Source of the DNA: an uncultured Candidatus Saccharibacteria bacterium
Lineage (GTDB): Bacteria; Patescibacteriota; CPR2; UBA1875; CAIMLA01
Direction of reading: 5' to 3'
Assembly: GCA_964501135.1 (NCBI GenBank)
Contig: CAZCRI010000001.1
Span: 192,393 to 256,392, forward strand
DNA length: 64,000 nt
Position 1 is the first letter of the stretch; each line of letters begins with the position of its first letter. The position numbers and the translations under genes are program-made. The notes beneath the pieces are model-generated. The model was not told where the DNA came from, did no database searches, and saw nothing but the letters and a program-made list of their open reading frames with translations. Below are positions 5,532 through 63,972 of this stretch, one piece after another.

Positions 5532-5945
5532 TTACCAGGATCTGGGCCTGTAGCTGTCACGAGACATCCCTCGTGTAGCTTGGTTTGCGGCAGCGAAAGA
5601 GGTGTTGATACGCCTGGTGTGATTGTGCGTTTCTAGTTCTCTTTCGGCGCGCCACGAGGCGCGTGCTTTGGCAAACCTGTCCTGTTCGACGTAGGACTCT
5701 AGCTCGTTCCGAACCTTGTCGTTCATCATCTGGCGCAGGTTCAGAGTGACCGTGTAGCGGGTACCATTGCGACTGAGCGGCGGATTGAGCCACTTACTCT
5801 TGTCGCTCAAAGAGCGCAAGATAGGATCTGGCAGACCCGCGTTATTCTTCTGTACCAGCCCTTTTGAGCTGTGGAACAGAAGGCAGAGCGCCAGAGCCAA
5901 GCGAAGCTCATGGTTTTCGACGTGTCTTATTATCTCTGGTACCAT
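5532..5945 (-). CDS. Hypothetical protein (137 aa) in GC-rich cassette 2
   Basis: Minus-strand ORF with AGGAG RBS (gagaggagctcgagATG) and its own promoter. GC content is raised. No recognisable domain. Confidence 0.4.
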   Translation of the reverse strand: MVPEIIRHVENHELRLALALCLLFHSSKGLVQKNNAGLPDPILRSLSDKSKWLNPPLSRNGTRYTVTLNLRQMMNDKVRNELESYVEQDRFAKARASWRAERELETHNHTRRINTSFAAANQATRGMSRDSYRPRSW

Positions 5946-15776: not shown

Positions 15777-15790
15777 TCTAATTATTTCTT

Positions 15791-15830
15791 AAAACCATTC
15801 TAATATTCTTAAGAATATTAGAATGGTTTT
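15791..15830. terminator. Perfect 40-bp palindrome (20-nt arms), a probable bidirectional terminator or operator
   Basis: AAAACCATTCTAATATTCTT|AAGAATATTAGAATGGTTTT, flanked by T-runs. Confidence 0.55.
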
Positions 15831-15889
15831 ATATTAGAAATACTTCGCCCGTAAGTGGTAAAATAATCCTAATGAAGAACGGAGGAACT

Positions 15890-16402
15890 ATGAAAGCGTT
15901 CATGCCAGAACTAGTAAAACTACTTGACCGAAATATGGTCACTGTTACCTCGTATGGTGACCCGAATATGGTAATGGAGCCGTATATGAAAGCTCTCTAT
16001 GGTGGCGTTTACTCAGCGAAAATGGGAGTCTATAAACCACTGGGAATTAAGATGGAGCTTGGAAAACTTACGGCTATGTGGCCTGATGCCCACCTGAAGC
16101 CAAAGAGTGAGTAGACGGGAATCTGGGCGGTACCGGTGCCTGACTATGTGAAGCAAGGGGATATTACCCAAAAGGACCCAGAGAAACCTGTAAAAGTTGA
16201 GGTCTGGCCTGGTGGCACTTATGCTCAGATATTACACCTTGGTGGTTATGTCGAAGAAGCTCCCACGATTGCAACCCTTCATAAATTTATCGAGGAACAG
16301 GGCATAGAAATGAAGGATGTCATCGGTTTACACGAAGAAGAGTATCTGACTAAGCCAGATGCCAAGGTGGTAAAAACCATTATTCGATATCGGATAAAAT
16401 GA
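15890..16402 (+). pseudogene. GyrI-like (AraC effector-binding / SbmC-like) small-molecule-binding domain gene interrupted by an in-frame TAG at 16112-16114
   Basis: ORFs 15872-16114 and 16136-16402 are in the same frame, separated only by TAG plus 21 nt. The second half, GGTYAQILHLGGYVEE...TLHKFIEEQGIEMKDVIGLHEEEYLT, matches the GyrI-like fold, and the domain needs both halves. GGAGG RBS before the ATG at 15890. Confidence 0.45.
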
Positions 16403-16427
16403 TATAATTACCCCACAAGGAGGATCA

Positions 16428-16973
16428 ATGAAAAAAGCATTAATTATTGCAAGTTCCCTGGGGTTACTGCTCGCAAGTGTGGCAGTTGCAAAGGTGGACA
16501 CCACAGCCCTTAGGGCACAACGCGCGGCAAATGCGCAGGCAAAGTGTGACCTGATTGAGGCAAACGTAACCCGTAAAATTACCAACTTTGAGGCAAACCG
16601 CAACAAGCACGTGGCATCGTACATTCGAACGAAAGAGAAGGTAGCAGCTATGGTTACAAAGCTCGAGGCTAAGGGCTATGACGTTACTAAGCTAAAGGCT
16701 GATCTCATCGAGTATGATGCCAAAATCAAGAAATTCTCTGACGATCACGCTGCTTATATTGCGGCACTTACCAGTACCCAGGAATTTGCGTGTGGTAAAA
16801 GCGAAGGAGAGTTCAAAACTCAACTCATCGCAGCTAGGGGGATATTAAAAGCAGTTCACGATGACTCGGTTGCCATCCGTACTTACTGGGCGGAAACTGT
16901 AAAGCCAGATCTTTTGGCCCTGAAGGCACAGACTATAACTGAAAAAGCAACGACAACAGGAGGGACAGAGTAA
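16428..16973 (+). CDS. Hypothetical secreted protein (signal peptide, helical)
   Basis: N-terminal MKKALIIASSLGLLLASVAVA signal-like segment. AAGGAGG RBS. An extended -10 (TGaTATAAT) lies at 16401-16409. Confidence 0.5.
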   Translation: MKKALIIASSLGLLLASVAVAKVDTTALRAQRAANAQAKCDLIEANVTRKITNFEANRNKHVASYIRTKEKVAAMVTKLEAKGYDVTKLKADLIEYDAKIKKFSDDHAAYIAALTSTQEFACGKSEGEFKTQLIAARGILKAVHDDSVAIRTYWAETVKPDLLALKAQTITEKATTTGGTE

Positions 16974-17305
16974 TGGCAGAGGTTACCCCACTTCATAAAC
17001 ATGAACATCCTGTATATCAGTGGATAGCGCTATTTGCTTCGGTGGCTATCATTCTATCTCTCGCCGGCTGGTATGCCTTGACCTACCAGGCTAGTGTGGA
17101 AGATGATGCTTTGGCTGCGGTGGAATCAGCCTATAGTGCCACTCTACATAAGAGTGCGAAGACTACCAAGTCAACAACTGCGACAACTAGCACCACTGGA
17201 AGCGAGATTGATGCCCAGGTTTCAGCAATTAATGGTGAAATTAATTCGGTTTCTAGTGATGATTTCTCGGAAAATAAACTGGATAATACTAGTCTCGGAC
17301 TATAG
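16973..17305 (+). CDS. Hypothetical membrane-anchored protein
   Basis: TM WIALFASVAIILSLAGWYAL followed by a T/S-rich segment. Start overlaps the previous stop. Confidence 0.4.
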   Translation: MAEVTPLHKHEHPVYQWIALFASVAIILSLAGWYALTYQASVEDDALAAVESAYSATLHKSAKTTKSTTATTSTTGSEIDAQVSAINGEINSVSSDDFSENKLDNTSLGL

Positions 17306-17326
17306 TCAGAGAAACTCATAATTACT

Positions 17327-17353
17327 AAAAAAGCGGCAGTAAGCCGCTTTTTT
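17327..17353 (+). terminator. Rho-independent terminator
   Basis: GCGGC-agtaa-GCCGC followed by TTTTTT. Confidence 0.75.
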
Positions 17354-17363
17354 AGTAAAAGTG

Positions 17364-17391
17364 TTGACAAAAATAGAGAAAGGTGTATAAT
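17364..17391 (+). promoter_or_regulatory. Consensus sigma70 promoter, TTGACA-16nt-TATAAT, reading into GC-rich cassette 3
   Basis: TTGACA at 17364-17369, TATAAT at 17386-17391. Confidence 0.55.
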
Positions 17392-17478
17392 AATCGGATA
17401 GTTCACAAAGAACATCGCACCGCGGCCAAGAGTCGCATACAATCCACGTACAATGCCTAGGAGGCTGCTGTGAAACGT

Positions 17479-17616
17479 ACTATCTTGGATGATTACTTCC
17501 AGGAACGCCTGAAGGTGTTTCTTGGAGCGCTCTACTTCATCGGTCTCTTCCTCTATTTCATCGGGGAAGCGCTTGTAGAGGACGCGATGCGTCCTTTCCA
17601 GCTGTAGTCCAGCGGG
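17479..17616 (+). CDS. Possible small hydrophobic peptide (45 aa, GTG start) in GC-rich cassette 3
   Basis: Perfect AGGAGG 6 nt before the GTG. VKRTILDDYFQERLKVFLGALYFIGLFLYFIGEALVEDAMRPFQL carries one hydrophobic helix. Speculative. Confidence 0.25.
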
Positions 17617-18088
17617 GACAAAAGGCTCTTAGGGCCCCGTAGACACCGTAGCCGGACGGATTCCGGATGTTCCCTTCATGACGAAGGGTCGAGCAAGGAG
17701 GTATCTCCATGAAGATCGCTCGCACTGCAGTCGCCGTTCGCGGCACCCCGGTCGTCAGCTCGTCCATCCTTATGAGTTCTGAATTCGGCATCCGCGGCGC
17801 GCGCGCCGGCACCGGGCCGCACAACTAGGGCCCGGTCGTCTCGCTTCGGGTAGCAACTCCTCAGGCGGGGAGATCCGAAGCGTCAGCACTAGCCTCGCGT
17901 TTCTGACCAGGAATCCTCTCGCGAGGTTGCTCTAACAGCTTGTGCTAAAATGTACGTGGAAATGGGGTCGGGACGATCACACATGGCCGCGCCAAAGGCG
18001 CCGCGTAGTGTTGGCCGTACCGGCCCTTCTCCTTTTAAGGATACGATGTATACTTGTTTCTTTGCCTTCGGCAATCTAGAATATCTAT

Positions 18089-19138
18089 ATGGATACAAAT
18101 ACTTTAATTATTTCGGGAATTTTAATAGCTGGTTTTGCTGCTCTTTTTTACTATCTCAAAACTCAGGTTGTCGAGCGACCTCAACCGAAGGAAGATGATA
18201 AGTCGTTATTACTCTTGCAACAGCAACTAGCCCAGGTATCTGAGCAGCTGAGCAAGGGAATGGTAGAGTCCAATCGTTCTGTACAGGAACAGTTCCGGGC
18301 CAGTAGTAACATTATCAAGGACGTTACTGAAAAGCTCAGTAACCTGGAGAACACCAACAAACAAGTTTTGGGGATAGCTGACCAGCTACAGGGTCTTGAA
18401 AATGTGCTCAAGAATCCAAAACAGCGTGGCATCCTCGGTGAATACTACCTGGAAACATTGCTCAAGAACATGTTTGGACCCAAGGATTATCAGATGCAGT
18501 ATCCGTTTAAAAACGGGGACATTGTAGATGCGGTAGTGTTTATCAAGGATAAGATCTTGCCGATAGATTCTAAGTTCTCACTAGAGAATTACAACAAGAT
18601 TGTTGCCGAAAAAGACATGACCAAGAAGGAACAGCTAGAGAAGCTCTTTAAGCAGGATCTAAAGAATCGTATCGATGAAACCGCCAAGTACATTAAACCC
18701 AAGGAAGGCACTATGGATTTTGCTTTTATGTTTATTCCTTCCGAGGGGATTTACTATGACCTTTTAGTAAATCAGGTCGGGGCGCTTAAGGTAAACACCA
18801 GGGATCTTATAGATTATGCTTTTCGTGAGAAGAGGGTAATAATTGTGTCGCCGACCTCCTTTGCCGCCTATCTTCAGACCGTGATGCAAGGTTTGCGGGC
18901 CTTGCAGGTTCAGGATTCGATAAAGGAGATTGTGGTCAATGTAAATAAGTTGTCTAGCCACCTTAATGCGTATCAAACCCATATGACCAAGTTGGGGAAC
19001 TCGCTAGGGACCACCGTAAACGCTTACAACACAGCAAGCAAGGAATTTGTGAAGATAGACAAGGATGTTACCAAGATTTCTGGTAAATCCATAGATTCGG
19101 AACTTTTACAGCTCGACAAACCTAGCACTGACGAGTAG
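18089..19138 (+). CDS. rmuC: DNA recombination protein RmuC
   Basis: N-terminal TM, a coiled-coil region, then the conserved RmuC C-terminal region (LGEYYLETLL...PIDSKFSLENY...VIIVSPTSFAAYLQTV). Confidence 0.8.
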   Translation: MDTNTLIISGILIAGFAALFYYLKTQVVERPQPKEDDKSLLLLQQQLAQVSEQLSKGMVESNRSVQEQFRASSNIIKDVTEKLSNLENTNKQVLGIADQLQGLENVLKNPKQRGILGEYYLETLLKNMFGPKDYQMQYPFKNGDIVDAVVFIKDKILPIDSKFSLENYNKIVAEKDMTKKEQLEKLFKQDLKNRIDETAKYIKPKEGTMDFAFMFIPSEGIYYDLLVNQVGALKVNTRDLIDYAFREKRVIIVSPTSFAAYLQTVMQGLRALQVQDSIKEIVVNVNKLSSHLNAYQTHMTKLGNSLGTTVNAYNTASKEFVKIDKDVTKISGKSIDSELLQLDKPSTDE

Positions 19139-19161
19139 TTGCTGTTCCTCCTTTTGAGGAA

Positions 19162-19560
19162 ATGTTCTATAATACCTATATGAATAAAAGTACTTTTTCA
19201 TACAAAGCGCTAGTGGCGGCTATTATTTCGGGAGGGATTTTTGTTTACGCACTTTATCGCCTGGATCCTAGGGCTGGTGGGATGAATGTAACTATCTTTT
19301 TGGTCTCTCTCTTTGTGGTAGTGATGAGTGTATCTGCGTTACTCAATTTTCTACTTTTGCGATTACGTAGTAATAACGAAAGTCATTTCTTGGCTTCCAA
19401 GGGTTCTCTGCGGAGGGGATTTCTCCTTGGTTTATACATAGTCGGCGTTCTCGGTCTTTCAGCATTAGAGCTGCTAACTTGGTGGGACGCACTGCTTTTG
19501 GCTTTGAGTCTGGTGTTATTTGAGCTATACTTTATTTCAGGTAAGGAGAAAACTTCTTGA
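19162..19560 (+). CDS. Hypothetical membrane protein (3-4 TM)
   Basis: Hydrophobic segments. Start overlaps the stop of the next gene (ATGA-like coupling). Confidence 0.4.
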   Translation: MFYNTYMNKSTFSYKALVAAIISGGIFVYALYRLDPRAGGMNVTIFLVSLFVVVMSVSALLNFLLLRLRSNNESHFLASKGSLRRGFLLGLYIVGVLGLSALELLTWWDALLLALSLVLFELYFISGKEKTS

Positions 19561-25253: not shown

Positions 25254-28200
25254 TTGGCCAAAAAGCCACGATTCCTGAAAGCTAGAAGCTATTGCAAGAA
25301 GGCAGTAAGTGCATGTTCTGCTATTTTTGGCTTGGCTATCGTTCGCGCTCTTACCTTCTTTATTGATAGGGCCAGAATCTGGCGGTTTGAGCTGATGTAT
25401 AAACTTCATCTCAAAGTTCGTTCGGTCCATGACAACTTGGTAATTAAGAATGTAATCTATAGAAAAGTCACTGAAAATAGGTATGCCATACCGGTGCGAA
25501 ACGCCTCGGTCTCGGCTTTCCTAGTTTCTCTGCTTCTCTTTACCTCTTTGCAGTACTTGTTGCCACTTCTAAATCCATTTAAGGCGACAGGGGTACAAGC
25601 TGGCAGTACAACTTATAATTGGCCGACAAACTCACCTTTTTCAAGCGCAGTTACCACCCCTAATATGGATTTTTCTACAACACCCAATAGCGCACAGCTT
25701 ACCAGAGGTTTGGATCACTATCTCGAAACCGGTACTGGTACAGATGGTTCTCTGACTGTCTCTAACCCCATGACAGTATGGAGAAATGGCGTTCAAGTCA
25801 CTAACGTTACAAGCTACAACATTAATACAGACAAATCTACTCCTAGTAGGGTTTGTAGTGAAGGCGGAGATGCTGTCAATTATTCTGTGACTGCGATTAC
25901 TCCTACAAGTGCAACACTATTAAATACTCCTGCGGCAAACTGTTTGGCAATGGGTGACGAAATACTACTTATTAATCTTAAGGGTACGCCCACTAATTAT
26001 GCCAATGTAGGTAATTATGAAACTTTTACTATTTCAAGTATATCGAGTAATGTAATAAACTTCTCAAGCGTAAAGACAAAATACTATGGAAATGATGGTG
26101 GTGATGCGAATATAGGCTCCACCATAAATGTCAATCAAATTGTAATGCTGCAAAGAGTACCAAATTATAGTTCTGTAAATGTTACTGGTACGTTAACTGG
26201 TAGCTCCTGGGACATAACTTATAAGAAAAACGGTGTTTTATTCTTTAGAAATACGGGTACAACTACAGTGAGTGGTGTTATCACTATGGATGGCAAAGGG
26301 TATTCTGGAGGTACGGTTGTAAATGGAGGCGAGGGATATAATGGAACTGGCGGTAATGGGGGCATTTATAATAGTGTTGGAAATATTGGTCAAGGCGGCG
26401 GGGGAGGAGGAGGTGGAAATACAAAAGCTGGTGGTCAAGGCACTACTGGATCAGGAGGTGGTGGGGGTGGTATAGGTCAAAATAGTTCCACCTGGTTTGG
26501 CGGCGGCGGCGGCGGTGGTGGCTATGGCACAGTGGGAACAGGTGGTTATTATAGTAATAGAATAGGTTCGCCTGGAAGTGGGAATCAGGGTGGTGCAGGA
26601 GTGTCAAGTAATAGTGGAATTGGCGCCAGTGGCGGTGGCGGAGGAATTTATGGTTCCTCAAGTACATTGAATAGTAAAATCTATTTTGGTTCGGGTGGCG
26701 GTGGAGGAGGAACTAGTGGTACCAGTGGGGGTCCCGGATACCCTGGTGGTTCGGGTGGTGGTATCATTCATATCGGTTCAAACAATATTACTGTTTCTGC
26801 TTCTGGGAATATTTCTGCAAAGGGAAGTAAGGGGGGTGATAATGGCACGGCCTATTGGTATGGTTCAGGAGGCGGGGGCGCTGGTGGGTCAGTTTATTTT
26901 TCTTCAAATTCTGTTAATAATTCTGGTACCGTGTCTGCTTCTGGTGGTACTGGGGGCGTAGGAAGTGCTGCTGCTAGTGCTGGTGGCACCGGTGGTTCAG
27001 GAAGAATTGGGATACAACATATTTCCACATCAACTTTCGGGACAATTTCACCCACCCCTACAAATATACAAATTGGTTCATTCACGGGTGTATACCAATA
27101 TGCGTCAAGCGGCAATATTGGAACGGCAGCAACAGATGCTGGTGGGTTGGTTCTTGATGCTGGTATTGGTAGGGCAATAAAGCCCTTTTCTCTCGATTGG
27201 TCTGCCGATACTACTATTAGCGGACAAAAAATATATTTTAAAGTTAGAACTGCGGCCCAATCTTCGGATCTTCACTCGGCGTCGTGCTATGGACCTGCGG
27301 GTAGTGATCCTACCTGCTCAGACTGGTCTACAGTTGGCACATATTTCTCTCAGGTAAACAGCGATGGTTCTATAACTACAAGCCCGTCTGAATTACCGGG
27401 ATCAATTTTAAGTACAATATTGCCGAATAGATATGTTGAAATATTAGTGTATATGGAGGTCGCAGAACGCTCTAGTAGTCCAGTTTTAACTAATCTTACA
27501 CTTTCCTATGATTCGTTAGATTACCCGTCTTATGACAAGTTATTACTATATAAATCTGATGCTTCTACGGTGCTTAAAAATTCATCTGGCTCAAATATTT
27601 CACTAGGTGCCGCAAATTCTGTTGGTGGGTATAACAATGAGTCGACAGTGGTACTTAAGGCTACAGATCTTACGTGTGGTACTGCTGCAAATGATAATTA
27701 TTGTTCAGGTTCAGTTTCTGGCTCTACATCACGTAAGCCCCAGGTTGAAGTGAGGGAAGTAGGTGCTGCCTTTGATGACACAACACTAGTAGAAGGGGCA
27801 AATTACTTTGCATCCGAAAGCACTTCCACTACCTCTACAGGCGAGCTTCAGTCTGGTCAAGTCTCTATAACAGGACTACAAACAGGCAAGCAATATCATG
27901 TAAGAGTTAGAATAGTAGATGCACAAAGCCGTGTATCTGCTTGGACGGCCTATGGAAATAATGCCGAGAGCGTAGCGGACTTTAGTATAGAACAGGATTC
28001 ACCCACACTGTCGACATTCACGATCAATTCAGGAGCATCCTACTCTAGCTCCTCCAATGTAACGCTAAACATTTCGGCTACCGATTCTGGTGGCTCAGGC
28101 CTTTCTCAAATGCAGTTCTCCAATAACGGAACAGACTGGGGTAAAACCGCTGATATTGACGGCAATATCACTGATACTGGCTGGGCAACTTATGCTACCA

Positions 28201-31200
28201 GTTACTCCTGGAATGTGGCAAAGGGTGTGGTAGATGGAGGTAGTGACACGGCTAGGACTGTGTATGCGAGAGTGAGAGATAATGCTGGGAATGTGAGCGG
28301 AAGGTTACACAACACAAAAGCTGATTTTGAGGGTAGTGGGTATCAAAAAGGCTTAGGAACAATAATAGCCGCAAACGGCACTCTCAGTTTACAAACCTTT
28401 AGCGGCTCGGAATCGGTTTCGTTAACAGGAACAGATGGGACAACTCGGACATATACGGGTGCTTCGGAGGTTAATGTTGGTTGGTCGGGTAGTTGTCCAA
28501 ATATTTCCATTAACATTGGCGGTGCCAGTGCTTACTCTGGGGGCGATGGTTCGGGCGCAACTGGGTGGATGAGTGGATCAACAACAACGGTTAGTTGCTA
28601 TGACGATACAGGTGAAAATAGTGCTTCAATAACCTTTAATATCTCGTTTAGGTCAACTCAGCTTCCTGTTTTTGATACCTATTCTTCACCAACAATAGCC
28701 TTGGGTACAGGGTCAACAGCAACCCAAATCGGTTGGGTTAACACTTCCGTTCCCGGTGATTCCTCGGTGAAATTTAAAGTCGCTACAAAAGACTCGGATA
28801 CCGGTTGGCAGACCTCCGACTTTATCGGCCCCGACGATACCGAAAACACCTTTTACGATATAAGTAGCGGCCAGAATCTTTCAACTCAGCATTTGAATAA
28901 AAGATATTTACGCTACAAAGCATTCTTATATTCGACATCAGATCGACTCCAAACACCTATCTTAGATTCAGTCAGTATTTACCAAGCTTTAGTCGCCACC
29001 ACTATTCTTGATACGCAGACACCTACAGGCACGGTGGCTATACGAGATTCTTCGTCTGGTTACGCCTTGAGCAAGAATGTGACCCTGAATCTTGAACCGA
29101 GTGACGCCGCACCATCATCGGGGCTAAAGGATTTTGCTCTTTCTAATGACGGAATCACTTGGTCCGGTTGGACAAATTGGAGTGAAACTTATCGGGCTGC
29201 AGGTGTGGGATATTCATGGACTTTAGCCGCTGGTGCTGATGGAACTCGAAATGTTTATGTGAAATATCGTGATAATGCTGGAAATGTAGGAGGTGTTAAT
29301 ATACCTGGGGATAATTGGACGCCTGGACAAGCTGAAACAGGGTACGCTACGGAGTTAGTGGGAAAATATGTTTACAATTTTGATGACCAATCATATCCGT
29401 ATCTTAAATGGAAATCGGATAGAGCTGATTGTAGCGGCAATCAATGTAGCAAGACAGCTTACCCTGCTCCTGATAGTTTTAATTCTCAAGCCAATGTACT
29501 TGTAAGTCCTCAGTTTAATCCAGGGGTTACATTTGGGACGGAATACCCAGCGCAGGAGGCTTGTAGTCTGATTGGTGGCCGTTTACCGAAGGTTAATGAA
29601 CTCAGGGCAATTTATGCAGGCAAGGTTGCTGGTCACTATAGTAACCTTGACGATTATTCATATTGGACTGCGACAGAGGTCCCTTGGAGCAGTGGCAATA
29701 GAACTTCGGCCTACTTGGTTCAATTTTATAATAACGGGAATCTTAGTTTCGATGTTAAAGATAGTACTATAGCAAGAACTAGGTGCGTTGCAGACGTTAC
29801 TCCTACAATAGGGGTTTCTGTCACACTTGACGTTTCCGGACCTGCCACCACTCTAAATATCAACCCGGCCACCCCAAATGGTGACAACGCTTGGTATAAA
29901 ATTGGTAAACCTACGGTTGCCTTTTCGTCCTCGGACAGTGCCTCGAAAACCGATAAAACATATTATGAATTTGTAACAACTGGCGCAGCTGCGCCAACGG
30001 TAGGTGCTTACACCAACACCCTAACCAACTCCGGGCAGGTTGACCCATATCAACCGTCTATACCTGTTGGTAATATACCAGAGGGGGATAACACACTGTA
30101 CTGGTATGCCGTAGACAAGGCGGGTAATGTAGAGAGCGTTCATAATCAGCAAATAAAGGTTGATATCCAAACACCTGCCACCACATATGTAATAGATCCT
30201 GAATTACCAAATGGCGACAACAACTGGTATACACTTACGGCGCCTACAATTACACTGAGCAGTAACGATCCCGGCACACCTAATTATTCTGGAGTGGCGA
30301 CACTTTACTACGCCTGGGAAACAGATACCAACCAAGCAGGTTGTACAGCACCGAAGTACTGGGAATCAAATGTAGGACGTTGCTTTAACGTCTACGCGGG
30401 AGCTTTTTCTCCGAATGATGGGAGCCACACACTGTATTATTTTTCGAAGGATAATGCTGGAAATGCCGATGCCGTTACTACAGAACAAATTTCCTACATT
30501 TCTCAGTTACCAAGCGTACCTTCGAATTTTCGGGCACCTGTGGGCGATCCAGAGACGGACGGCTCACACATTAAACTTTATTGGAATGCTTCAAGCTCGG
30601 TATCTGGCATTGTGGCTTATCAAATATTGAGGAAAAGGGAGATTGATAGCTGGGGCCAGCGCGATGCTACAATTGACTTACCGCTTCCGTTGAGTAATAC
30701 GATATACTTAGACTCGAACGAAACAACCACCCCAAATGGCTTGAATATTTTGGAAACTGGGCAACGGTATAACTATAAGATAAGGGCGCGTGATAATGCG
30801 GGGAACTGGGGCTCTTTCTCTACAGATAAACTGGGGTATACTGCAGACTTTATATCTCCGACACCAGTTACTGGAGTTTTGGCGGAAGCCTGTGACGGGA
30901 CACTTTATGACTCTCAAAATAGCCCAAATGGAAAATGTAGCGATATTGGCAACGAAGGGTTTGAGGTCAAGCTTACTTGGAATAGCTCAAACGACACTGG
31001 AGTTGGTATGTCCAAGTATATCATTTATCGTTCTACAACCAATTCGGCAGATGAAGCTGAGTGGCCAGTAGTGGGGGTGTTGGAATACGCTTCTGGGCAG
31101 GAGACCATTTGGTTTGATAATGACACCAATAACGCTGCTACTTTTACTACTGACAAACCTTCTGCTACCCCGATACTGAACGATTCAACCGATTATTATT

Positions 31201-34200
31201 ATCGTATCAGAGCTTTTGATAATACTGAATCAGGAAACCCAACAGCATTATTTCCGTCTGATCCTGGGCTCTTTCTTTCTAACTTTAGCTCTACTACAAC
31301 CCCTGATGTTACTGCACCGACCGTTCCAAGTAATGTTGTTGCTTCACCGCTTGGTCTTGACTCATCGGGCAGCCATCAGAAGGTTCATCTTACTTGGAGT
31401 GAGTCGAAGGATTACAGGCGACGCTCTAGTGATGAGGTAGCAGGGATTGTAAACTATAACGTTTACCAAGCTACCAATCCCGCAGGACCATATACCTTGG
31501 CGAGAACAACATCTGAGATTGTCATTGACCTAGATGGGTTAGATGAATTTACTAACTACTATTATGCAGTGGAATCATATGACAGTGTTCCGAATACCTC
31601 AGCTCGTTCTGACTCCGCTACGGCCCGGACAGCTTCCAACTCGGTACCAACAACTCCGACTGATGTAACAGTGACAACTAAGACGGGTGACCCTGCGACG
31701 GATTCACAGATCGGCCACAAAAACACCATTAGTTTTAATGGGTCTTATGCTAAAAATTGCCTGAACTCAGTTGGTTGTTTGACAAAGTATGAAGTCTATC
31801 GCTCCACGAATAATTATTCTGATTATCAGACATGGCTTACGAATGGAACAAAAATTGCTGAAGTAGCACCAGCTGATCTTCGGGATGACCGCACGGCGAC
31901 AGTACAGAACAATCAGGGTAATGTGGTTAGGAGCGAGCCTTATCAGGTGGTAGATACCGGCCAGATTTATCCGGCAACTTCTGCGAATGGGCTTACCAAC
32001 GCCACTACTTATTACTACAGGGTTTGGGCGCTGGATAATACACCTGATCCAGTAACTGGCGGAGTTTGCCCCGTGACCCTAGTAGGGGTTCAGTGTAATT
32101 ACCATTCACCAATGACGACAGTAGAAGTTGGTACACCACACGCTGGTTGGGACACGACTGCAGATGATGAAGCTCCTGCCTTACCGACCGAACTCAAGGT
32201 GAAGGACATTCATGATGACGGATACGCCTTTAAGCGCAATATTATTACCTGGGCGCGTATCGAAGACCCTCTCAGGAATGGCACGAATGACTTTTATGAA
32301 TACCGAATTTACCGATCAGATGATGGAGTTACTTGGGAACAAATATGTACCGATGGCACCAATCAATACCTGCAAGCAGAATGCGGCCTGCCGAATGAAA
32401 GTCATTACAATCCTCTTTTTAATGCGGATCAAGAACTAGGGCTCGCCACGAACTATTATATGGATTTGATACCAAATTCGTTGGCAAACCAATATTATTA
32501 TTATCACGTAACAGCAGTTGATAATGCTGGATCTAGTTTTCGCTATTCAAACGGCCAGGTGATAAATAAAGTTGGTAATGTGACTTACTCGAACGAGTCT
32601 GAACCTGCAAGAGACGGAAATGGTAACATCGTCTCTGAGTCGCTAAATCCGGCAATCGCAAAGCCTACGATTACAACAACGGGTGCCTTTGCACCAAGGA
32701 TGGTGAATGTAGGAGTCTCCTCGGCGAGTCTTCAGTGGTATGCCGATCAGCCGACAGACTCAGTGGTAGAGTTCAAGGCGGTATCAGATACAGAATGGAT
32801 TACGATAGGTGAGCGAGAGAAAAAGAACCCAGATACACCTCACGTTGTAAATCTTTTCGGTCTTAGACCAGCTACGGAATATGAATATAAACTCATTTCT
32901 AGAAATAGTTTAGGCAACGAGGACGTTCTCGGTGACCGGCAAGAAGAAAAGGTGACGGTCCCGAACTTTACAACCAATTCATTCACAGTCAACTATCAGG
33001 CCGATAAGATAGAGAAGTCCACAGTATCTATTAAGCTTTTCTGGACCACGAATATGCCTGCAAATACAAACATTGTCGAGTATAAGCTTAGCAACGGTGA
33101 CCAGACTGGTTCGACAGCGGAGACGCCAGTGAATCTAGATGCAATACCTAGTAACGGACGAAATTGTGCAGCGACGCCGTCGTTGTGTAATCACACCGTT
33201 ACTCTATCTCCACTCCGCGGAGCTAGTGAGTATACTTTCAAGATAAGGGCGATGTCACTTGATGGGTTCAATACCGAAACCTCTTTTCTTTCGTTTATCA
33301 CTGATAACGCCGATACTAGGCAATTTACGATGGTGCCCTCATCTTCGAACGTAGCTGATCGCAACATCACTGCTACTTCGGCACAGATTGTATGGCAAAC
33401 TGCAGTTCCGACCACGGCAATTGTTCACTTTGGGACTTCTAAATCTGGTCCATATGCTAGCACCGCTACAGACAGCGTCTTTAGCTCCTCACACGTGGTT
33501 GTTCTCGAGGGGTTAACCCCGGGCGAGACATATTACTATTGGGTGGAAGCTAAGGACATCAATAACTTGGTTTACTCTTCTCCGGAATACTCCTTTAAGG
33601 CTGTGCTTAAGCCAAAAATCTCTAACATGCAGCTCAAGAATGTAACACCATACGCCGTAACGATTGCCTGGGACACCAATATTGAGACAGAGACAGTTAT
33701 AAACTGGGGCAAGACAGCTGTTTATGGCGAGAAACGAGGGGTTTCTGGTCTAAGTAAAGTACATCAAGTGGTGATAGACAATCTGGAAGACAATCAGGAA
33801 TATCATTATCAGATCCTGGCTAAGGATGAGACGGGCAATGAAGTTGCAGATACTGACAAGATTGTTCGTACCCCCCTCGACACCGAGGGACCAAAGATTA
33901 CCAATGCCAAGACTGATATTCTCCCTATGGGTGAGAATGACACAACCGCATCAGTGATCATCTCTTGGAATACCAATAAACCAGCTACCACGCTCGTCGA
34001 GTATGATGAAGGTATCATCGGCGGCGGCTATGGTAACAGGTCTGTGGAGGACACTTCGCTAAATACTTCACACACCGTTATCATAAAGAACCTAAAGCCA
34101 GCATCCTCATTTCACTATCGTATGGTCTCTGCTGACAAGCGTAACAACATCACGCAGTCGCAGGACTACACCTTCGTCACACCGACGAAAGAAAAGTCCA

Positions 34201-34304
34201 TCCTACAGCTCATCTTAAAGTCACTCGAGGAAACCTTCGCTTGGACAAAGAACCTCAATCAATTCTTTGGAAATATTGGCAAAAGAATCACTGGTAAAAA
34301 GTAA
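25254..34304 (+). CDS. Giant cell-surface protein 1 (3016 aa, TTG start). It has an N-terminal membrane anchor, a Gly-rich region, Ig-like/Fn3 repeats, a DUF1566/C-type-lectin-like domain and a C-terminal Fn3 (purple-acid-phosphatase-N-like) array
   Basis: GGGAGGG RBS. TM VSAFLVSLLLFTSLQYLLPLL. Poly-Gly tracts (GGGGGGGG). A recurrent DNAGN motif at Ig-like domain ends. A lectin-like ...CSLIGGRLPKVNEL...YWTATE...RCVAD segment near nt 29530-29790. The C-terminal ~730 aa are paralogous to the next gene. Confidence 0.8.
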   Translation: MAKKPRFLKARSYCKKAVSACSAIFGLAIVRALTFFIDRARIWRFELMYKLHLKVRSVHDNLVIKNVIYRKVTENRYAIPVRNASVSAFLVSLLLFTSLQYLLPLLNPFKATGVQAGSTTYNWPTNSPFSSAVTTPNMDFSTTPNSAQLTRGLDHYLETGTGTDGSLTVSNPMTVWRNGVQVTNVTSYNINTDKSTPSRVCSEGGDAVNYSVTAITPTSATLLNTPAANCLAMGDEILLINLKGTPTNYANVGNYETFTISSISSNVINFSSVKTKYYGNDGGDANIGSTINVNQIVMLQRVPNYSSVNVTGTLTGSSWDITYKKNGVLFFRNTGTTTVSGVITMDGKGYSGGTVVNGGEGYNGTGGNGGIYNSVGNIGQGGGGGGGGNTKAGGQGTTGSGGGGGGIGQNSSTWFGGGGGGGGYGTVGTGGYYSNRIGSPGSGNQGGAGVSSNSGIGASGGGGGIYGSSSTLNSKIYFGSGGGGGGTSGTSGGPGYPGGSGGGIIHIGSNNITVSASGNISAKGSKGGDNGTAYWYGSGGGGAGGSVYFSSNSVNNSGTVSASGGTGGVGSAAASAGGTGGSGRIGIQHISTSTFGTISPTPTNIQIGSFTGVYQYASSGNIGTAATDAGGLVLDAGIGRAIKPFSLDWSADTTISGQKIYFKVRTAAQSSDLHSASCYGPAGSDPTCSDWSTVGTYFSQVNSDGSITTSPSELPGSILSTILPNRYVEILVYMEVAERSSSPVLTNLTLSYDSLDYPSYDKLLLYKSDASTVLKNSSGSNISLGAANSVGGYNNESTVVLKATDLTCGTAANDNYCSGSVSGSTSRKPQVEVREVGAAFDDTTLVEGANYFASESTSTTSTGELQSGQVSITGLQTGKQYHVRVRIVDAQSRVSAWTAYGNNAESVADFSIEQDSPTLSTFTINSGASYSSSSNVTLNISATDSGGSGLSQMQFSNNGTDWGKTADIDGNITDTGWATYATSYSWNVAKGVVDGGSDTARTVYARVRDNAGNVSGRLHNTKADFEGSGYQKGLGTIIAANGTLSLQTFSGSESVSLTGTDGTTRTYTGASEVNVGWSGSCPNISINIGGASAYSGGDGSGATGWMSGSTTTVSCYDDTGENSASITFNISFRSTQLPVFDTYSSPTIALGTGSTATQIGWVNTSVPGDSSVKFKVATKDSDTGWQTSDFIGPDDTENTFYDISSGQNLSTQHLNKRYLRYKAFLYSTSDRLQTPILDSVSIYQALVATTILDTQTPTGTVAIRDSSSGYALSKNVTLNLEPSDAAPSSGLKDFALSNDGITWSGWTNWSETYRAAGVGYSWTLAAGADGTRNVYVKYRDNAGNVGGVNIPGDNWTPGQAETGYATELVGKYVYNFDDQSYPYLKWKSDRADCSGNQCSKTAYPAPDSFNSQANVLVSPQFNPGVTFGTEYPAQEACSLIGGRLPKVNELRAIYAGKVAGHYSNLDDYSYWTATEVPWSSGNRTSAYLVQFYNNGNLSFDVKDSTIARTRCVADVTPTIGVSVTLDVSGPATTLNINPATPNGDNAWYKIGKPTVAFSSSDSASKTDKTYYEFVTTGAAAPTVGAYTNTLTNSGQVDPYQPSIPVGNIPEGDNTLYWYAVDKAGNVESVHNQQIKVDIQTPATTYVIDPELPNGDNNWYTLTAPTITLSSNDPGTPNYSGVATLYYAWETDTNQAGCTAPKYWESNVGRCFNVYAGAFSPNDGSHTLYYFSKDNAGNADAVTTEQISYISQLPSVPSNFRAPVGDPETDGSHIKLYWNASSSVSGIVAYQILRKREIDSWGQRDATIDLPLPLSNTIYLDSNETTTPNGLNILETGQRYNYKIRARDNAGNWGSFSTDKLGYTADFISPTPVTGVLAEACDGTLYDSQNSPNGKCSDIGNEGFEVKLTWNSSNDTGVGMSKYIIYRSTTNSADEAEWPVVGVLEYASGQETIWFDNDTNNAATFTTDKPSATPILNDSTDYYYRIRAFDNTESGNPTALFPSDPGLFLSNFSSTTTPDVTAPTVPSNVVASPLGLDSSGSHQKVHLTWSESKDYRRRSSDEVAGIVNYNVYQATNPAGPYTLARTTSEIVIDLDGLDEFTNYYYAVESYDSVPNTSARSDSATARTASNSVPTTPTDVTVTTKTGDPATDSQIGHKNTISFNGSYAKNCLNSVGCLTKYEVYRSTNNYSDYQTWLTNGTKIAEVAPADLRDDRTATVQNNQGNVVRSEPYQVVDTGQIYPATSANGLTNATTYYYRVWALDNTPDPVTGGVCPVTLVGVQCNYHSPMTTVEVGTPHAGWDTTADDEAPALPTELKVKDIHDDGYAFKRNIITWARIEDPLRNGTNDFYEYRIYRSDDGVTWEQICTDGTNQYLQAECGLPNESHYNPLFNADQELGLATNYYMDLIPNSLANQYYYYHVTAVDNAGSSFRYSNGQVINKVGNVTYSNESEPARDGNGNIVSESLNPAIAKPTITTTGAFAPRMVNVGVSSASLQWYADQPTDSVVEFKAVSDTEWITIGEREKKNPDTPHVVNLFGLRPATEYEYKLISRNSLGNEDVLGDRQEEKVTVPNFTTNSFTVNYQADKIEKSTVSIKLFWTTNMPANTNIVEYKLSNGDQTGSTAETPVNLDAIPSNGRNCAATPSLCNHTVTLSPLRGASEYTFKIRAMSLDGFNTETSFLSFITDNADTRQFTMVPSSSNVADRNITATSAQIVWQTAVPTTAIVHFGTSKSGPYASTATDSVFSSSHVVVLEGLTPGETYYYWVEAKDINNLVYSSPEYSFKAVLKPKISNMQLKNVTPYAVTIAWDTNIETETVINWGKTAVYGEKRGVSGLSKVHQVVIDNLEDNQEYHYQILAKDETGNEVADTDKIVRTPLDTEGPKITNAKTDILPMGENDTTASVIISWNTNKPATTLVEYDEGIIGGGYGNRSVEDTSLNTSHTVIIKNLKPASSFHYRMVSADKRNNITQSQDYTFVTPTKEKSILQLILKSLEETFAWTKNLNQFFGNIGKRITGKK

Positions 34305-34327
34305 CAATCAAGAATCTCTAAAATAGA

Positions 34328-34364
34328 GCTAAAACAAGCACGTTTTGTGCTTGTTTTAGCTCGG
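34328..34364 (+). terminator. Terminator hairpin GCTAAAACAAGCAC-gtttt-GTGCTTGTTTTAGC, same core as 25176-25206
   Basis: 14-bp stem plus a T-run. Confidence 0.7.
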
Positions 34365-34398
34365 GCAAAGTATTACAATTTATCTATAACTTGCGAGG

Positions 34399-37300
34399 GT
34401 GATGAAACCTAAAAAAGCTCAGCTAAATTCAGTGTGGAAACGAGCTACAAAGCTACTATCGAAAAGTAGTAATTTTAGGTTACGCAAAAGTTTTTTTACT
34501 CAAATTCCGTTGCGTTCACTATCCTTCGTCTGGTCACTCTTCAAACATATTATTTCTTTCCTAGCGAAGAACGTTATCTTGGTCCTTATAAATTTTATTG
34601 ATTATCTAGTAAAACTGCTCCAGATATTACGCTATGAGCTGACCTATAAATTCCACCTCAAGGTTCGCTCGGTACATGACACTTTGGTAATACGTGTGCC
34701 GGTTTACAAGAAGGTTACAGAACATCAGCTAGCTGTCCCAGTACGCAATGCAACTGTATCGGCTTTCTTCTGCTCATTAGCAATCTTTTTATCTCTCCAG
34801 TATGTACTGCCTCTTTTTAATCCGTTTGCCCCACAGGGAGCTCACGCGGGATCAAATAGTGCGACCTGGACCACAGATTCTGACTTTAATAACAATACAA
34901 TTACAACAAACACACCTACAACCAAGAATACAACAAATTTTGCAGGTACAGTTCTTGCCACAACCGGTAGTACTTCAGTTGTGGGCACGGGTACATCTTT
35001 TGCAGATTATCTGGATCCTTTTAATACTCCTAAGGCTATTAATATAGACGATGTTTCTTATGGTGTGGCTAGTGTGACCGACAATACCCATCTGACACTT
35101 ACTGCAAACTATCAAGGGACTACTGGCTCGGGGAAAACATTCACCTTTGATAATGTTGTAGTGAATGATGATGCCATAAGTCTACGTAAATATGGTCTCC
35201 CTGTAACTAAAACTTCAACTTTTACAGTTCCTAGCGGTGTCACGAAAATATATATTGACATGAAGGGTGGCGGAGGCGGTGGTGGTTCTACTGTTTATTC
35301 TGGAGGGAATTGCGGACAAGCCGGAGGCGCCGGGGGATACTCAGCGCTTAAGATTGATAACGGACTAGAATACTGGGCATTCGGCGGCGGCGGAGGTGGA
35401 GGAGGTTGCCCTAACTTTGTTGGGGCAACAGGCTCTCCTGGAACCTATAATCACCGAAACGTTCCCACCTTAATACCCGTTGATGGAGGGGCAAATAATG
35501 GAGGTATAGGGGGTTACTATGCAAGTACTAGCCGTGGAGGTAATGGTGGTGCGGGGGGCAGGATCACGGGCACATTGGCAGTCACTGGGGGTCAAGTTGT
35601 CACAATAACAAATGGTGCTGCAGGGGTTGGTGCTACTGGCCCAAGCGGATGGCCAAAGGTAAACGGAGCGAATGGATCCGCAGGCTCTGTAGAGGTACTG
35701 TATTACATCCCTGCATTTGCAGGAAATGGTAATATAACTGGCTTTAAAATTGATGCAGGGGCAGGACTTAAATATAAGTGGAGTTCCTTATCATGGGTTA
35801 CTGATGCCTTACCAAGTAATACATCGGTGAGGTTTAAATACAGAACATCAGACGACGGTTCCAGCTGGTCTGATTCTACCTGGTCACAAACAGGAACGGC
35901 ACAAATAACTGGTAGTTCAGGAGGAGCTTCTTTGACCAGTTTGAGTGCTTCCAGATACTTGGAACTTCAGCTGCTGCTGTATTCCGTAGACGGAGTCTAT
36001 TCCCCTAAGCTAAATGAGTTTATAGTACAGTACGATACCTTGGAAGCACCCTTAAATGAAAACCTATCGTTAACTGACATAAGTAATAACTCATTAAGAA
36101 CCACAACGGGTATGATTACAGACGTTCCGATCGAGACCACTTCTATACCGGCGGGGCATTCCAGATATGGAACTCCAAACACTTGGACAAATCAAGCTAC
36201 AGTAAGGCTTAAGGCAAACAACCTTACCTGCGGGAGTGGTGTGACGGCATGTACTGTTACTTCTACAAACCTAAGACCAGAAGTGGAGATAAAGCCTATT
36301 GTTAATGGGGTTCCAACGGCATTTACGGGCAGTGGAGTGACGGCAGATGAAGGCAAGACCTATGTCGATATTTCTGGTTTAGCTACAAACTCAGCCTACC
36401 ATATCCAAGTAAGAGCCGTGGATGGTCAGGCCAGAGCATCTGCCTGGGTGTCGTATGGAAATAACGGAGAGTCGGAACCAGATGTTACGGTAGAACAAAC
36501 GTCTCCCACCCTTCAGCTTAATGGTTTTGCGGATCAAGCTGGCAGTGATATTTTGGAAAAAGGAGGTGTGCTATACACCAGGAGTAATCAGGTAAAGATG
36601 AAGATTGGAACCTCTGACAATGGGGGTATACGTTCGAACCTTGCAAAAGTAATGATAACTAACAACCTCGACGACACAGGGTGGCAGGATGTTACGAATC
36701 AAATTACAAACTATCAGACACAGTATCTTGGACAATCATCGTTTACTGGGCTAGTACCCTGGACTCTTGAGGGCACGGACGGAGTAAAGACCGTTACTGT
36801 CAAAACTGTAGACAATGCTGGCAACGTCAGTGGACAGAGCATTGTGACTTCAACGGAGCTATCTACTACCGATAGTACTTTTGTGGTTTCTCCTGCAGGT
36901 AATGCGGGCGGCGCTGTAGTTGTAGATAATAAACTTCAGTTATCATCGACAACTAGTGGCGGAGTGGGTAGTTCGACTACCTCTGTATACCCAACAAATG
37001 ATGAAACTACATACTGGGATGAATGGTGCGGAGGCTGGTCATTGGATGAAAACCCAATGGGCACCAATTCTGGCTACGATAATGACTGTGGGAGTTGGGG
37101 GCAAGATGCGCACATTACCTTCAATAACGGTTTAGTTTCTGGTCTAACAAATGCAAGTATAAGGATTACCAGTAATGGTGATGCACTTACCTGGGTCTGG
37201 CATGATACGACAGGTACTTCTAATAGTGTTAATCTGACTACTAATACACCAAATTCACTAGATATCACGGCAATGGTCCAGGCAGATATTGCGAATGGTG

Positions 37301-40300
37301 ATACCTACACTGACGTGTGGGTAAACAACGGAATGGGTGTATATTCAATGGAGGATCCGATTCCTAGTTATAGGCCCCAATTAACACTAACAGCAAGTAC
37401 TCCAAGTACAACTACCTTTGACACACCAGAAACATTTACCTCTCGTATTCTCTATAGCGGTGCCACAAGTCCAGACTATAGTGCATTTACCACTAGTCAG
37501 ACAAATAACGGACAAACCATTTCATATCAGATGCGCTCGGGTAATAATGCCACTACTATCGATGGTTCGTGGGGCAGTTGGTACTCGGTAACGCCTGGTA
37601 GCTCTATAAATGCAAATCTTAGTGGCACGAACAGGGGTTATTTCCAGTACAAGGCAACTCTATCCACATCTAATCCGGCAGTTACACCAACTATCAGCAG
37701 TGTAACTGTGGCTGGTGCATATACGCCTCCTTCTGAAGGTACGGTGTATTCGGCGAATATCACTCTTGATCTTATTGGTCCGGCAACTTTTGATGTTTCT
37801 CTGCCAGCCGACAATACTTGGAGTGGCTCCAATAAGCCGACCCTAACCTGGACGGCCTCCCAGGATAATCCAGGGTCGGGACTGTATAAATATGAACTCT
37901 ACATGGATGGGGTACTTAAGAAAACCATTGATGACACTACCGTGGGGGCAACGGCAAACATCCTTAGCGCTACTCCTGGGAGTGACGTGTCATATACCTT
38001 ACAAACTGGCGAGGAATTATCGGAAAAGATGCATACTTGGTATGTGAAAGCATATGACAAGGCACTAAATACCGCCGATTCTACCAGGGGAGTCAGCAAC
38101 CCTTTCCATATTGGTTATGATAGCTCGCTTCCGAATACCGTGCCAACTACAGATATCTCGGCTCAGGCGTCTGGGTGGTTTACCACGAGCCCGCAAATCA
38201 CTCTTACGGCTACAGATCCAGGCGCAGGTGATGGTTCTGGTATCTCCGAGATTAAATATCGTTGGGATAATAGCGATCTGTCAACCGGTGCCACTACTTA
38301 TGCTTCGGCGATAAACATGTCGGCCACTATTGGAGACGGCACGCACGTTTTATATTTCCGCTCCAAGGATACTGCAGGAAACTATGAATCAGTAAAACAG
38401 CAGACCTACAAACTCGATACTATTAACCCAAACACAGATTATTCTATAAGTAACACTCCGCCGAACGGTGACAATGACTGGTACGTAGGAACTGCGCCTA
38501 CTATTTCGCTTACCCCGCATGATGAAGGAAGTGCGAACGCTTCGGGTGTGGCCACTACAAAATATCAGTGGGTCAACCATGGTGCTCAGCCAGGGGCAAC
38601 ATGGCTTACTGGCACTAGCTTTGCCGCATCGCTTGGGGATAAGACACTTTACTACTACTCTACAGACGTAGCTGGGAATGATGGTGCACAGTATGAGCAA
38701 CAACACGTAAAATTTGACAATGTGAGCCCTATTTCTCCGACTGGCTTTGATGCTCCCACAGATAGAGCGTATACGGATTCGATCTACCTCAAATGGAACG
38801 GCGTTACTGACACTTCAGGTGTCCAGACCTATCAGTTGAGAAGAAAAAAAGATAGCGATACCTGGAGCGGTTTGTCCGTTGTTGATTTGGGAGCTGTCGG
38901 GAATATAACCACCTATACAGATGCTAATGGTCTAGAAGCTGGCTATAAATATACTTATCAAATAAAAACCCAGGATAATGCAGGCAATTGGAGCGACGGC
39001 TGGTCGAGTGGTAACCCAGACCAGGTAGTTGGCTATACTATCGATACCGTAACGCCGACAGTCCCTAGTGGCGTCGTCGCGGCAGCTTGTGATGGATCCG
39101 GGGCTACGCTTGCGATCCCAGATACTGACCCGGCAGTGACCACGCCAATATGTACTAGTATTAGCAATAAGGGCTATGAAATCACGTTATCTTGGAAGCA
39201 AGCGGGTGATACGGGTGTGGGCCTTGGCGGATACAAGATCTACCGTTCGGCTGACGGCGATACTGCCGATGAGACCAAGTGGGTGATGGTAGGTGTGCTT
39301 CCTTGGACTGGCGCCGAGGTACTCAAGTGGAATGATAACAATACAAACAACTTAGCAACCTGGGACATTGGAACGTACCCAAGTACGCATCAGAAATCCG
39401 GACAACAGGCAGGGAAGACGGATCCTTCAGATCCATTGAGCGACTCTACCACTTACTACTATCGAGTCACCGCCTACGACGCTGTTAATAACGAGAGCGC
39501 ACTGTTCCCACCAATTTTCCCAGATCCAGACATGAACAGGACGGCTGCTGTGACCCCAGACGTTACCGCGCCTGGCTGGTTTGATGTACAGGGAAACCGA
39601 ATCAGTGACGCTGGCGTTTCTGCTGTGGCACTCGGCCTTGATGGTAGTAACCTCGATGACGAAAACATTGGTCATCAGCGAATAGTAGTAAGCTGGAACA
39701 CTGCTATCGACAAAAAACACAACGGGGATGTTCTCGAAGGTTCGGTACCTAGCTACGAACTATACCGCTCAGCGACTAGCTACCAAACTGACGGTGAGTG
39801 GCTTGCGAGTGCTACCAAACTTACACTGAGCCCAACTACGGCCGTGACCTACGAGGACAACGGGCTCGCTGACTCGACAGTTTACTATTATCGAGTGCTT
39901 ACCTATGACGTGAGCGCCAACAAATCAGACCTCTCCAGTCGGGAGGGGAGTGACCACGCCACTACCTATGATTCTAATATCCCATCAGCTCCGAGTGAGG
40001 TCCGTGTGTCGACGGCAAAGGGAGATCCTAACGTCGCAGACTCCCAAGTGGGAAACACGATAAACATTAGCTTTAAGGGAAGTAACTCCAAATATCGTGA
40101 AATTGTGAAGTACGAGGTTTATCGTTATGAAGCGGATACTAATAATCTTAGTAACAGCCAGTGGCTTGATAGTACGCAGACCACGAAACTCAAGATTTCC
40201 CACTCAGATAGTTGTGGTAGCAAGTGCGAGACCTATACGGCTGGGTCCTCAGGCGGCGACATCGAGATTACGGCGAATCAGGATGACCGCGATAATGAGT

Positions 40301-56977: not shown

Positions 56978-57005
56978 TTGACATGCCTCACTCCTTTGCT
57001 ATAAT
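56978..57005 (+). promoter_or_regulatory. Consensus sigma70 promoter, TTGACA-16nt-TATAAT, about 420 nt upstream of the surface protein gene
   Basis: TTGACA at 56978-56983, TATAAT at 57000-57005. Confidence 0.55.
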
Positions 57006-57364
57006 TTCACTACGCCTTTTGCGAAAGTAAGGGGTACGGAATCCGAAATCCTGTTTATGCCAAATCAGCATAGAGGTTACAAAACAAACAAACTATTCTG
57101 ATACGAACAAAGTAAGGGAGTGAATGCTTTGACCTATGGGTGCGCACACAGTACTGCTACACGGTTGACACAAGTGCCTATGGGAAACAGCAAATGGTGA
57201 AGCCGGTCACATTTCCTCGAAGTTTTTTATGGTAATAAATATCAAACTTGGAGGGAGGGTGATCGGTTTTTGTTTTGTCAAAATTATGGCAACACCGATC
57301 AGAACTCTCATAACACAAACACAGAATGACAGAAGCGTAATTAATCAGTAATAATAAACGTAAG

Positions 57365-57416
57365 CCCCGACGTTTCGTTGTTCGAAAGTCGGGATCCCGA
57401 CCGCAAGCGTCGGGGG
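57365..57416 (+). repeat. Tandem hairpins (copy 2 of the CCCGAC...GTCGGG motif) overlapping the RBS of the surface protein gene
   Basis: CCCCGACGTTTCG-ttgtt-CGAAAGTCGGG, then AT, then CCCGAC-cgcaag-CGTCGGGGG. The RBS GGGGGAGG shares the 3' arm. Confidence 0.5.
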
Positions 57417-57425
57417 AGGTAAAAA

Positions 57426-60829: not shown

Positions 60830-62288
<1,459 letters not shown>

Positions 62289-63954: not shown

Positions 63955-63972
63955 CAGATGGTTGGTTCGCTA

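Follow-up and report, generated by a model that had tools for sequence, protein, structure and literature searches.

Phage morons are reportedly autonomous insertions, each composed of a promoter, an ORF and a terminator, located between phage genes. We compared them with a GC-rich unit (cassette 3) in the window, i.e., the whole 64-kb stretch of a Patescibacteria/CPR chromosome that was analysed here (mean GC content 45.7%). Cassette 3 is similar to morons in having its own sigma-70 promoter and intrinsic terminator, in occupying an intergenic gap between genes unrelated to each other and in its deviant base composition. It differs in its chromosomal surroundings, which are housekeeping genes and no recognisable prophage, and in carrying two very small ORFs vs. 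the one ordinary gene of a moron; the likeness is one of architecture.

Orphan status restricted to one lineage is typical of type I toxins. In this respect cassette 3 resembles hok/sok, aapA1/isoA1 and tisB/istR, with which it also shares a small peptide with a single transmembrane (TM) segment, a disproportionately long structured mRNA (predicted for cassette 3) and a strong promoter. It differs from them in that no promoter for an antisense or divergent sRNA and no family homology were found, the interaction between its 5' and 3' parts is not significant, and a second ORF is present.

The third comparison is with the GC-IGR/DIMPL screens of the Breaker lab, which also deal with long GC-rich IGRs in lower-GC genomes (PMC11109978, PMC8723152, PMC6429828). 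Candidates with <5 representatives stay "low-ranking" or "unnamed" in that work (PMC11109978). Cassette 3, like them, falls short of the number of representatives that a consensus model needs; the copies found come from the same strain only (100 and 99.8% identity). An ncRNA class in those screens needs covariation, whereas the geometry of Shine-Dalgarno (SD) motifs and start codons in cassette 3 points to small ORFs (sORFs). Most regions flagged in GC-rich-IGR surveys prove to be ORFs (PMC11109978, Table 1).

Our best reading of cassette 3, offered tentatively, is that of a moron-like operon, autonomous and encoding two small peptides. On present evidence it is an ordinary orphan sORF locus and not a new RNA class. 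If the peptides are real, an unannotated small-protein operon would be added to a CPR genome. CPR bacteria have much unexplained lineage-specific coding capacity, which may bear on their episymbiotic lifestyle.

Location and boundaries of cassette 3

Cassette 3 is placed between a small secreted-type gene of 110 aa and rmuC, among housekeeping genes. The gene on its 3' side (18089-19138, + strand) was identified as rmuC by Pfam (RmuC, 8.1e-53), and its product reaches a best identity of 67%, to MAGs labelled Saccharibacteria, Parcubacteria and similar. Within ~7 kb, the Pfam-matched genes upstream are MscL, NUDIX, Sua5, ferric-reductase-like, cyt-b5, DUF5661 and GyrI-like, and those downstream are RmuC, PheS, PheT and a YkuD transpeptidase; several small neighbours within ~7 kb on each side gave no Pfam match. 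Exact-protein look-ups of rmuC and of the 110-aa and 132-aa neighbours returned the same contig or nothing. In the PHROGs search no cassette 3 ORF was matched and no recognisable prophage was detected around the cassette; the sole PHROG match was a weak one (E 0.0016) between an upstream 181-aa protein and a family of unknown function. RmuC (18089-19138) also matched the PADLOC model "RTasRmuC" (DRT-associated RmuC, 1.5e-14). This is probably generic RmuC-domain homology, given that the gene occurs widely across CPR and has no adjacent reverse transcriptase.

The features of cassette 3 and its edges are as follows.

17322-17358, both strands: bidirectional intrinsic terminator that ends the 110-aa gene upstream (TTACTAAAAAAGCGGC / GCCGCTTTTTTAGTAA); inverted repeat, perfect over 16 nt, accompanied by A- and T-runs; left edge of cassette 3
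17364-17391, + strand: sigma-70 promoter TTGACA-16-TATAAT, 12/12 consensus match
17459-17464, + strand: SD AGGAGG of ORF1, 5 nt before the start
17470-17607, + strand: ORF1, 45 aa, GTG start, (M)KRTILDDYFQERLKVFLGALYFIGLFLYFIGEALVEDAMRPFQL, one TM helix
17608-17694, + strand: GC-rich inter-ORF spacer, three short hairpins in the MFE model (z = +0.2, not above chance)
17695-17701, + strand: SD AAGGAGG of ORF2, 7 nt before the start
17709-17828, + strand: ORF2, 39 aa, ATG start, MKIARTAVAVRGTPVVSSSILMSSEFGIRGARAGTGPHN; basic, not hydrophobic
17829-18012, + strand: GC-rich 3' untranslated region, several hairpins, no Rfam match
18013-18035, + strand: terminator-like hairpin GGCCGTACCGGCC followed by the T-rich tail CTTCTCCTTT; right edge of cassette 3
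18054-18082, + strand: rmuC promoter-like site TTGTTT-17-TAGAAT, outside cassette 3

Most of what a first-pass annotation had read from the letters of this region was borne out. Its textbook TTGACA-16-TATAAT promoter at 17364-17391 begins 6 nt past the upstream terminator and is one of only two 12/12 sites on both strands of the 64 kb, as compared with 0.00 in 100 dinucleotide shuffles. Its "most GC-rich stretch in the window, locally above 65%" corresponds to 17700-17899, which at 66% GC has the highest 200-nt value in the window. The Pfam match agrees with its placement of the cassette directly upstream of rmuC. The two tiny ORFs with perfect SDs are present at the spacings listed above, and the 45-aa ORF has the one hydrophobic helix described (approximately residues 16-32, hydropathy peak 2.25). 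The statement that the stretch holds no long ORF needs one qualification: the longest ORFs of the plus strand are 45 and 39 aa, and the minus strand holds ORFs of 88 and 69 aa. The annotation had also raised the possibility of an assembly chimera. The Logan assembly of run ERR3839025 contains window positions 15802-18758 at 100% identity with both junctions spanned, and in GCA_013573125.1 positions 17209-17809 are matched by a 601-nt contig that carries a single substitution (99.8%). A chimera was therefore rejected: the junctions are real, being reproduced in two other public assemblies.

Transcription from the perfect promoter would start near 17398. The hairpin at 18013-18035 doubles as the base of a longer stem (17964-18027, MFE model), and its T-run is interrupted (CTTCTCCTTT). 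The rmuC ATG is located 6 nt past its own -10 box and lacks an SD, which is a leaderless layout; rmuC therefore need not rely on the cassette 3 transcript. Own promoter, closing terminator and the separate rmuC site together make the GC-rich stretch a stand-alone unit of ~640 nt, and not obviously an rmuC leader. The -10-to-ATG layout is repeated at the next gene (start 19162). As a side observation, both rmuC (start region 18054-18091) and the following 132-aa gene (start region 19148-19189) start 6 nt past a TAGAAT/TATAAT -10 box with no SD, and leaderless mRNAs are therefore implied in this genome.

The composition of the cassette is distinct. The region 17420-18040 is 58.6% GC vs. 45.7% for the window. 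The 700 nt upstream of rmuC lies 10 points over the genome mean, and the same 700-nt difference at 58 other CPR rmuC loci was -1.6 ± 2.8 points (maximum +4.4). No flanking direct repeats or target-site duplication were found around cassette 3.

Two small ORFs and the evidence for coding

The 3' end of the 16S gene in the window (60830-62288) carries CACCUCCUUUC, with the anti-SD CCUCC, and native genes in the window use the matching GGAGG motif. Cassette 3 contains exactly two GGAGG motifs, and each is positioned 5-7 nt before one of the two longest plus-strand ORFs. Across the window such geometry was found at 19 of 71 GGAGG sites, ~12 of them at real gene starts; the chance rate among GGAGG sites away from real gene starts is ~10%.

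Codon-position bias also distinguishes the two ORFs. GC1/2/3 is 0.61/0.24/0.63 in ORF1, which reads as the pattern of a membrane peptide, and 0.57/0.60/0.78 in ORF2. The GC3 values of both agree with the other GC-rich cassettes (0.58-0.72), not with native genes (0.37-0.51). The antisense 88-aa ORF shows flat codon-position GC (0.62/0.61/0.63) and has no SD. The ORF1 peptide opens MKRTILDDYFQER... and its TM helix holds an in-frame 21-nt tandem duplication (LYFIG x2); the ORF2 peptide opens MKIARTAVAVR.... ORF1 is annotated as a gene in two public assemblies.

Several points count against coding. In DNA of 59% GC, ORFs with lengths of 45 and 39 codons are nothing unusual, and ~40% of the predicted transcript lies within ORFs and ~60% outside. 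ORF2 was skipped by gene callers in one assembly, and the single SNP in another sample is non-synonymous (M40T in ORF1).

Homology searches returned nothing that would place either peptide in a family. ORF1 was compared with 5.8 billion proteins and found matches from the same strain only. ORF2 gave zero matches among 1.84 billion representatives and is absent from every gene catalogue searched. The genome of the relative described below (GCA_041738615.1) was within the collection searched and gave no ORF1 match; this counts for little, because the word index can miss a match of 50% identity over 45 aa. Pfam, NCBIfam, PADLOC (E <= 1) and PHROGs (E <= 0.01) were tested on the main plus- and minus-strand ORFs (four to seven ORFs depending on the library) with no match. 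A PDB sequence search gave chance TM-helix matches only (E > 2). Against phages and plasmids, blastn of cassette 3 found chance matches of 27-45 nt only, and tblastn of the ORF1 and ORF2 peptides against phages found nothing. Degenerate back-translated patterns and exact 23-24-mers gave zero hits in viral contigs. Three occurrences of the ORF1 pattern in JGI metagenomes were rejected as chance matches in AT-rich contigs, not homologues. Comparison of cassette 3 with 80 CPR rmuC loci (blastn, nhmmer, tblastn) detected no related element. No synteny-conserved counterpart was found upstream of rmuC in other CPR genomes; the more distant ones are not syntenic at the locus. Judged by these searches, the ORF1 and ORF2 peptides are ORFans.

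As the favoured small-peptide operon, cassette 3 would be a self-contained transcription unit of ~640 nt with phage moron-like architecture, and its RNA would most likely be a bicistronic mRNA. ORF1 would be translated into a 45-aa single-pass membrane peptide with its slightly basic N-terminus in the cytoplasm and its acidic C-terminus outside, and ORF2 into a soluble, basic peptide of 39 aa. In the structure prediction, codons 5-11 of ORF1 (17484-17500) pair with the SD and AUG of ORF2 (probability ~0.87), and the sequestration of this SD exceeds that in 98% of 50 shuffles of local composition. The predicted sequestration suggests translational coupling: a helix with the early part of ORF1 would hold the ORF2 ribosome-binding site closed, and ribosomes translating ORF1 would open it. 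The most plausible function would be that of a small peptide acting on the membrane, together with a partner peptide.

GC-rich sister cassettes and a syntenic relative

The window contains at least four GC-rich orphan cassettes, cassette 3 included. The three sisters are terminator-flanked and intergenic.

1840-2530: cassette 1, two ORFs (94 and 90 aa) preceded by TTGAAT-17-TATAAT
5532-5945, - strand: cassette 2, single ORF of 137 aa
56316-56720, - strand: further cassette, single ORF of 134 aa

The proteins of the three sister cassettes had no family match in any library. No homologue beyond its own sequence was found for the 134-aa protein, and its single-sequence AF2 model (pLDDT 44) was unusable. 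The 137-aa protein has one homologue, at 72% identity, in GCA_041738615.1. A locus of that assembly (L086) is a syntenic relative of the window at ~77% DNA identity and carries cassettes 1 and 2 at the same positions. The encoded proteins are 61 and 50% (cassette 1) and 72% (cassette 2) identical in amino acids, the ORF lengths are kept within 3 residues, and both cassettes stay GC-rich, with values given as 0.55-0.56 and as 0.54-0.58. The locus stops at the match to window position ~16763, ~600 nt short of cassette 3.

Since these sister cassettes are conserved and GC-rich in the relative, we concluded that the class consists of stable, fast-evolving, lineage-specific protein genes, not of fresh junk. 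The prior that cassette 3 also codes is therefore higher. Cassette 3 is like its sisters in raised GC and GC3, orphan status and terminator-flanked position, and cassette 1 has its own near-consensus promoter too. The sisters differ in having ORFs of 90-137 aa, two of the cassettes being conserved in the relative, whereas cassette 3 has only the 45- and 39-aa ORFs and is ~60% non-coding. No paralogues of cassette 3, and no ends shared with the other cassettes, were found in the window.

More may be gained by following the pattern as a whole: at least four terminator-bounded GC-rich orphan cassettes are present, and two of them are GC-rich in a relative as well. Their retention there raises the question of where such cassettes come from and why their composition has not drifted towards the mean of the genome.

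A separate observation concerns the leader of cassette 1 (especially 1862-1930), a cassette whose counterpart in the relative is at L086:15810-16600 (minus strand). The segment from its -10 box to the ATG is kept in the relative except at ~3 positions, two of which fall in the SD-to-ATG spacer, and the proteins behind it are just 61 and 50% identical. This suggests a conserved regulatory leader in cassette 1.

Alternative readings and other features of the window

The strong promoter, the terminator-bounded unit, a GC content far over the genome mean and above even that of the 16S gene (51%), and the ~60% of the unit outside the two ORFs would also suit a novel structured ncRNA or dual-function RNA of ~640 nt with incidental or secondary ORFs. 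We consider this unlikely. The whole-region fold z-score, -5.9 or -3.4 on the plus strand and -3.7 or -2.5 on the minus strand, appears to favour it, being stronger on the plus strand. It was rejected as a sign of structure because protein-coding GC cassettes with AT-rich flanks were equally negative (z = -5.8 and -4.4); the global z reflects compositional heterogeneity. Folded as four homogeneous segments, cassette 3 gave ordinary z-scores of -1.1, +0.2, +1.1 and -2.0 (the last for 17829-18040), and no folding stability beyond composition was detected in these segments. Nested complementary segments link the 5' and 3' parts (17443-17452/17951-17960, 10/10; 17421-17427/17985-17991, 7/7). The 5'UTR-3' duplex energy of -49.5 kcal/mol was, however, matched or beaten in 14.5% of shuffles (-44.6 ± 4.5 kcal/mol, p ~0.15), and the long-range stem was rejected as not above chance. 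The exact placement of both SD motifs for translation argues against an ncRNA, as do the lack of a paralogue in the window and of a homologue in the 80 CPR rmuC loci.

Searches for known RNA families were equally negative. Rfam 15, with families such as RNase P, tmRNA, SRP, 6S, riboswitches, introns and large ncRNAs, found nothing in cassette 3 at the gathering threshold; its sole match in the window was the 16S gene, which is short (1,459 nt). A permissive scan (E <= 10, 17250-18200) gave terminator-driven matches and eukaryotic lncRNA noise only, and ARAGORN found no tRNA or tmRNA. The earlier reading had reported no RNase P, tmRNA or SRP RNA motifs, and this agrees with the Rfam and ARAGORN results; explanation as a known RNA, which it had left to an Rfam search, does not apply. 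The many stem-loops that it had noted are present, but their segment-wise stability is ordinary. Its novel ncRNA candidate has gained no positive evidence, neither from Rfam nor from the stability of the segments.

Decaying foreign high-GC DNA behind a promoter, with leftover or chance ORFs, would account for the alien composition, the homologues not found anywhere searched, the short ORFs in every frame and the missing syntenic counterpart upstream of rmuC in other CPR genomes. We regard such a non-functional remnant as unlikely too. A perfect promoter, two well-spaced SD-start pairs and a terminator would hardly be kept in the junk of a streamlined CPR genome. The composition class is stable, as the sister cassettes are conserved and GC-rich (0.54-0.58) in a relative of ~77% identity. 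In addition, no known-family fragment was found in three further plus-strand ORFs (Pfam) or in the two or three longest minus-strand ORFs.

A type I toxin-antitoxin-like locus, with ORF1 as a membrane-damaging toxin, a long and translationally quiet mRNA and an RNA antitoxin nearby, appears quite improbable. ORF1, which has 45 aa, a single TM helix and charges at its ends, is within the size given for such toxins (<60 aa), its promoter is strong and the GC-rich mRNA would be much larger than ORF1. Its lineage-restricted orphan status and the complementary segments flanking the coding part are in keeping with this class, and in the structure prediction the start codon of ORF1 is engaged in pairing (unpaired probability 0.02). 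The SD of ORF1 is nevertheless about half accessible (unpaired probability 0.44), and the 5'-3' pairing does not rise above chance. A consensus scan of 17300-18150, which detects canonical promoters only, found no minus-strand promoter-like site at or above 8/12. Hok, Ldr, Fst, TisB and other toxin models (Pfam, NCBIfam, PADLOC) gave no match, and a second SD-led ORF is not foreseen for a type I locus. Of the proposals in the first-pass annotation, the promoter-driven small-peptide unit is thus the best supported; the type I toxin label, which fits in size and TM helix, is not supported, with no antisense promoter, no family match and no significant 5'-3' pairing found.

A broader variant would be a long, GC-rich structured transcript that serves as the message for a membrane peptide and also works as an RNA, i.e., a new kind of dual-function RNA or type I toxin-like module in Patescibacteria, within a lineage-specific set of GC-rich orphan cassettes with promoters, whose GC is actively maintained across species. 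We hold this to be a long shot. If true, it would hint at a dedicated source of the cassettes or at selective pressure on them, e.g., a mobile element yet to be characterised or a pool of genes for host interaction in these episymbionts.

Control of rmuC by read-through of a weak terminator, with cassette 3 as a long regulatory leader, is highly improbable: the cassette is directly upstream on the same strand and its terminator has the interrupted T-run, but rmuC carries a -35/-10 site of its own, its ATG follows the -10 box by 6 nt, a read-through RNA would offer no ribosome-binding site at that ATG since rmuC has no SD, and no related upstream element exists in 80 other CPR rmuC loci. The RiPP-like precursor locus also proposed by the first-pass annotation is not supported, as no modifying enzyme, protease or transporter, i.e., no maturation or export gene, was found among the Pfam-matched genes within ~7 kb on each side.

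Other features of the window were recorded along the way. At 56978-57425, the second perfect TTGACA-16-TATAAT promoter is followed by a ~420-nt leader of ordinary GC that precedes a 554-aa ORF (start 57426) with a signal-peptide-like N-terminus; the leader had no Rfam match at the gathering threshold. Immediately upstream of the SD is a 30-nt GC hairpin motif (57389-57418), which is repeated at 63928-63957. A perfect 21+21-nt palindrome (TAAAACCATTCTAATATTCTT / AAGAATATTAGAATGGTTTTA, 15790-15831) has the DUF5661 gene on one side and the next small ORF on the other, and the Logan contig L082 begins inside this palindrome. Two adjoining giant ORFs of 3016 and 2740 aa (25254-42621), with internal repeats and Gly-rich GGN tracts, probably encode surface proteins.
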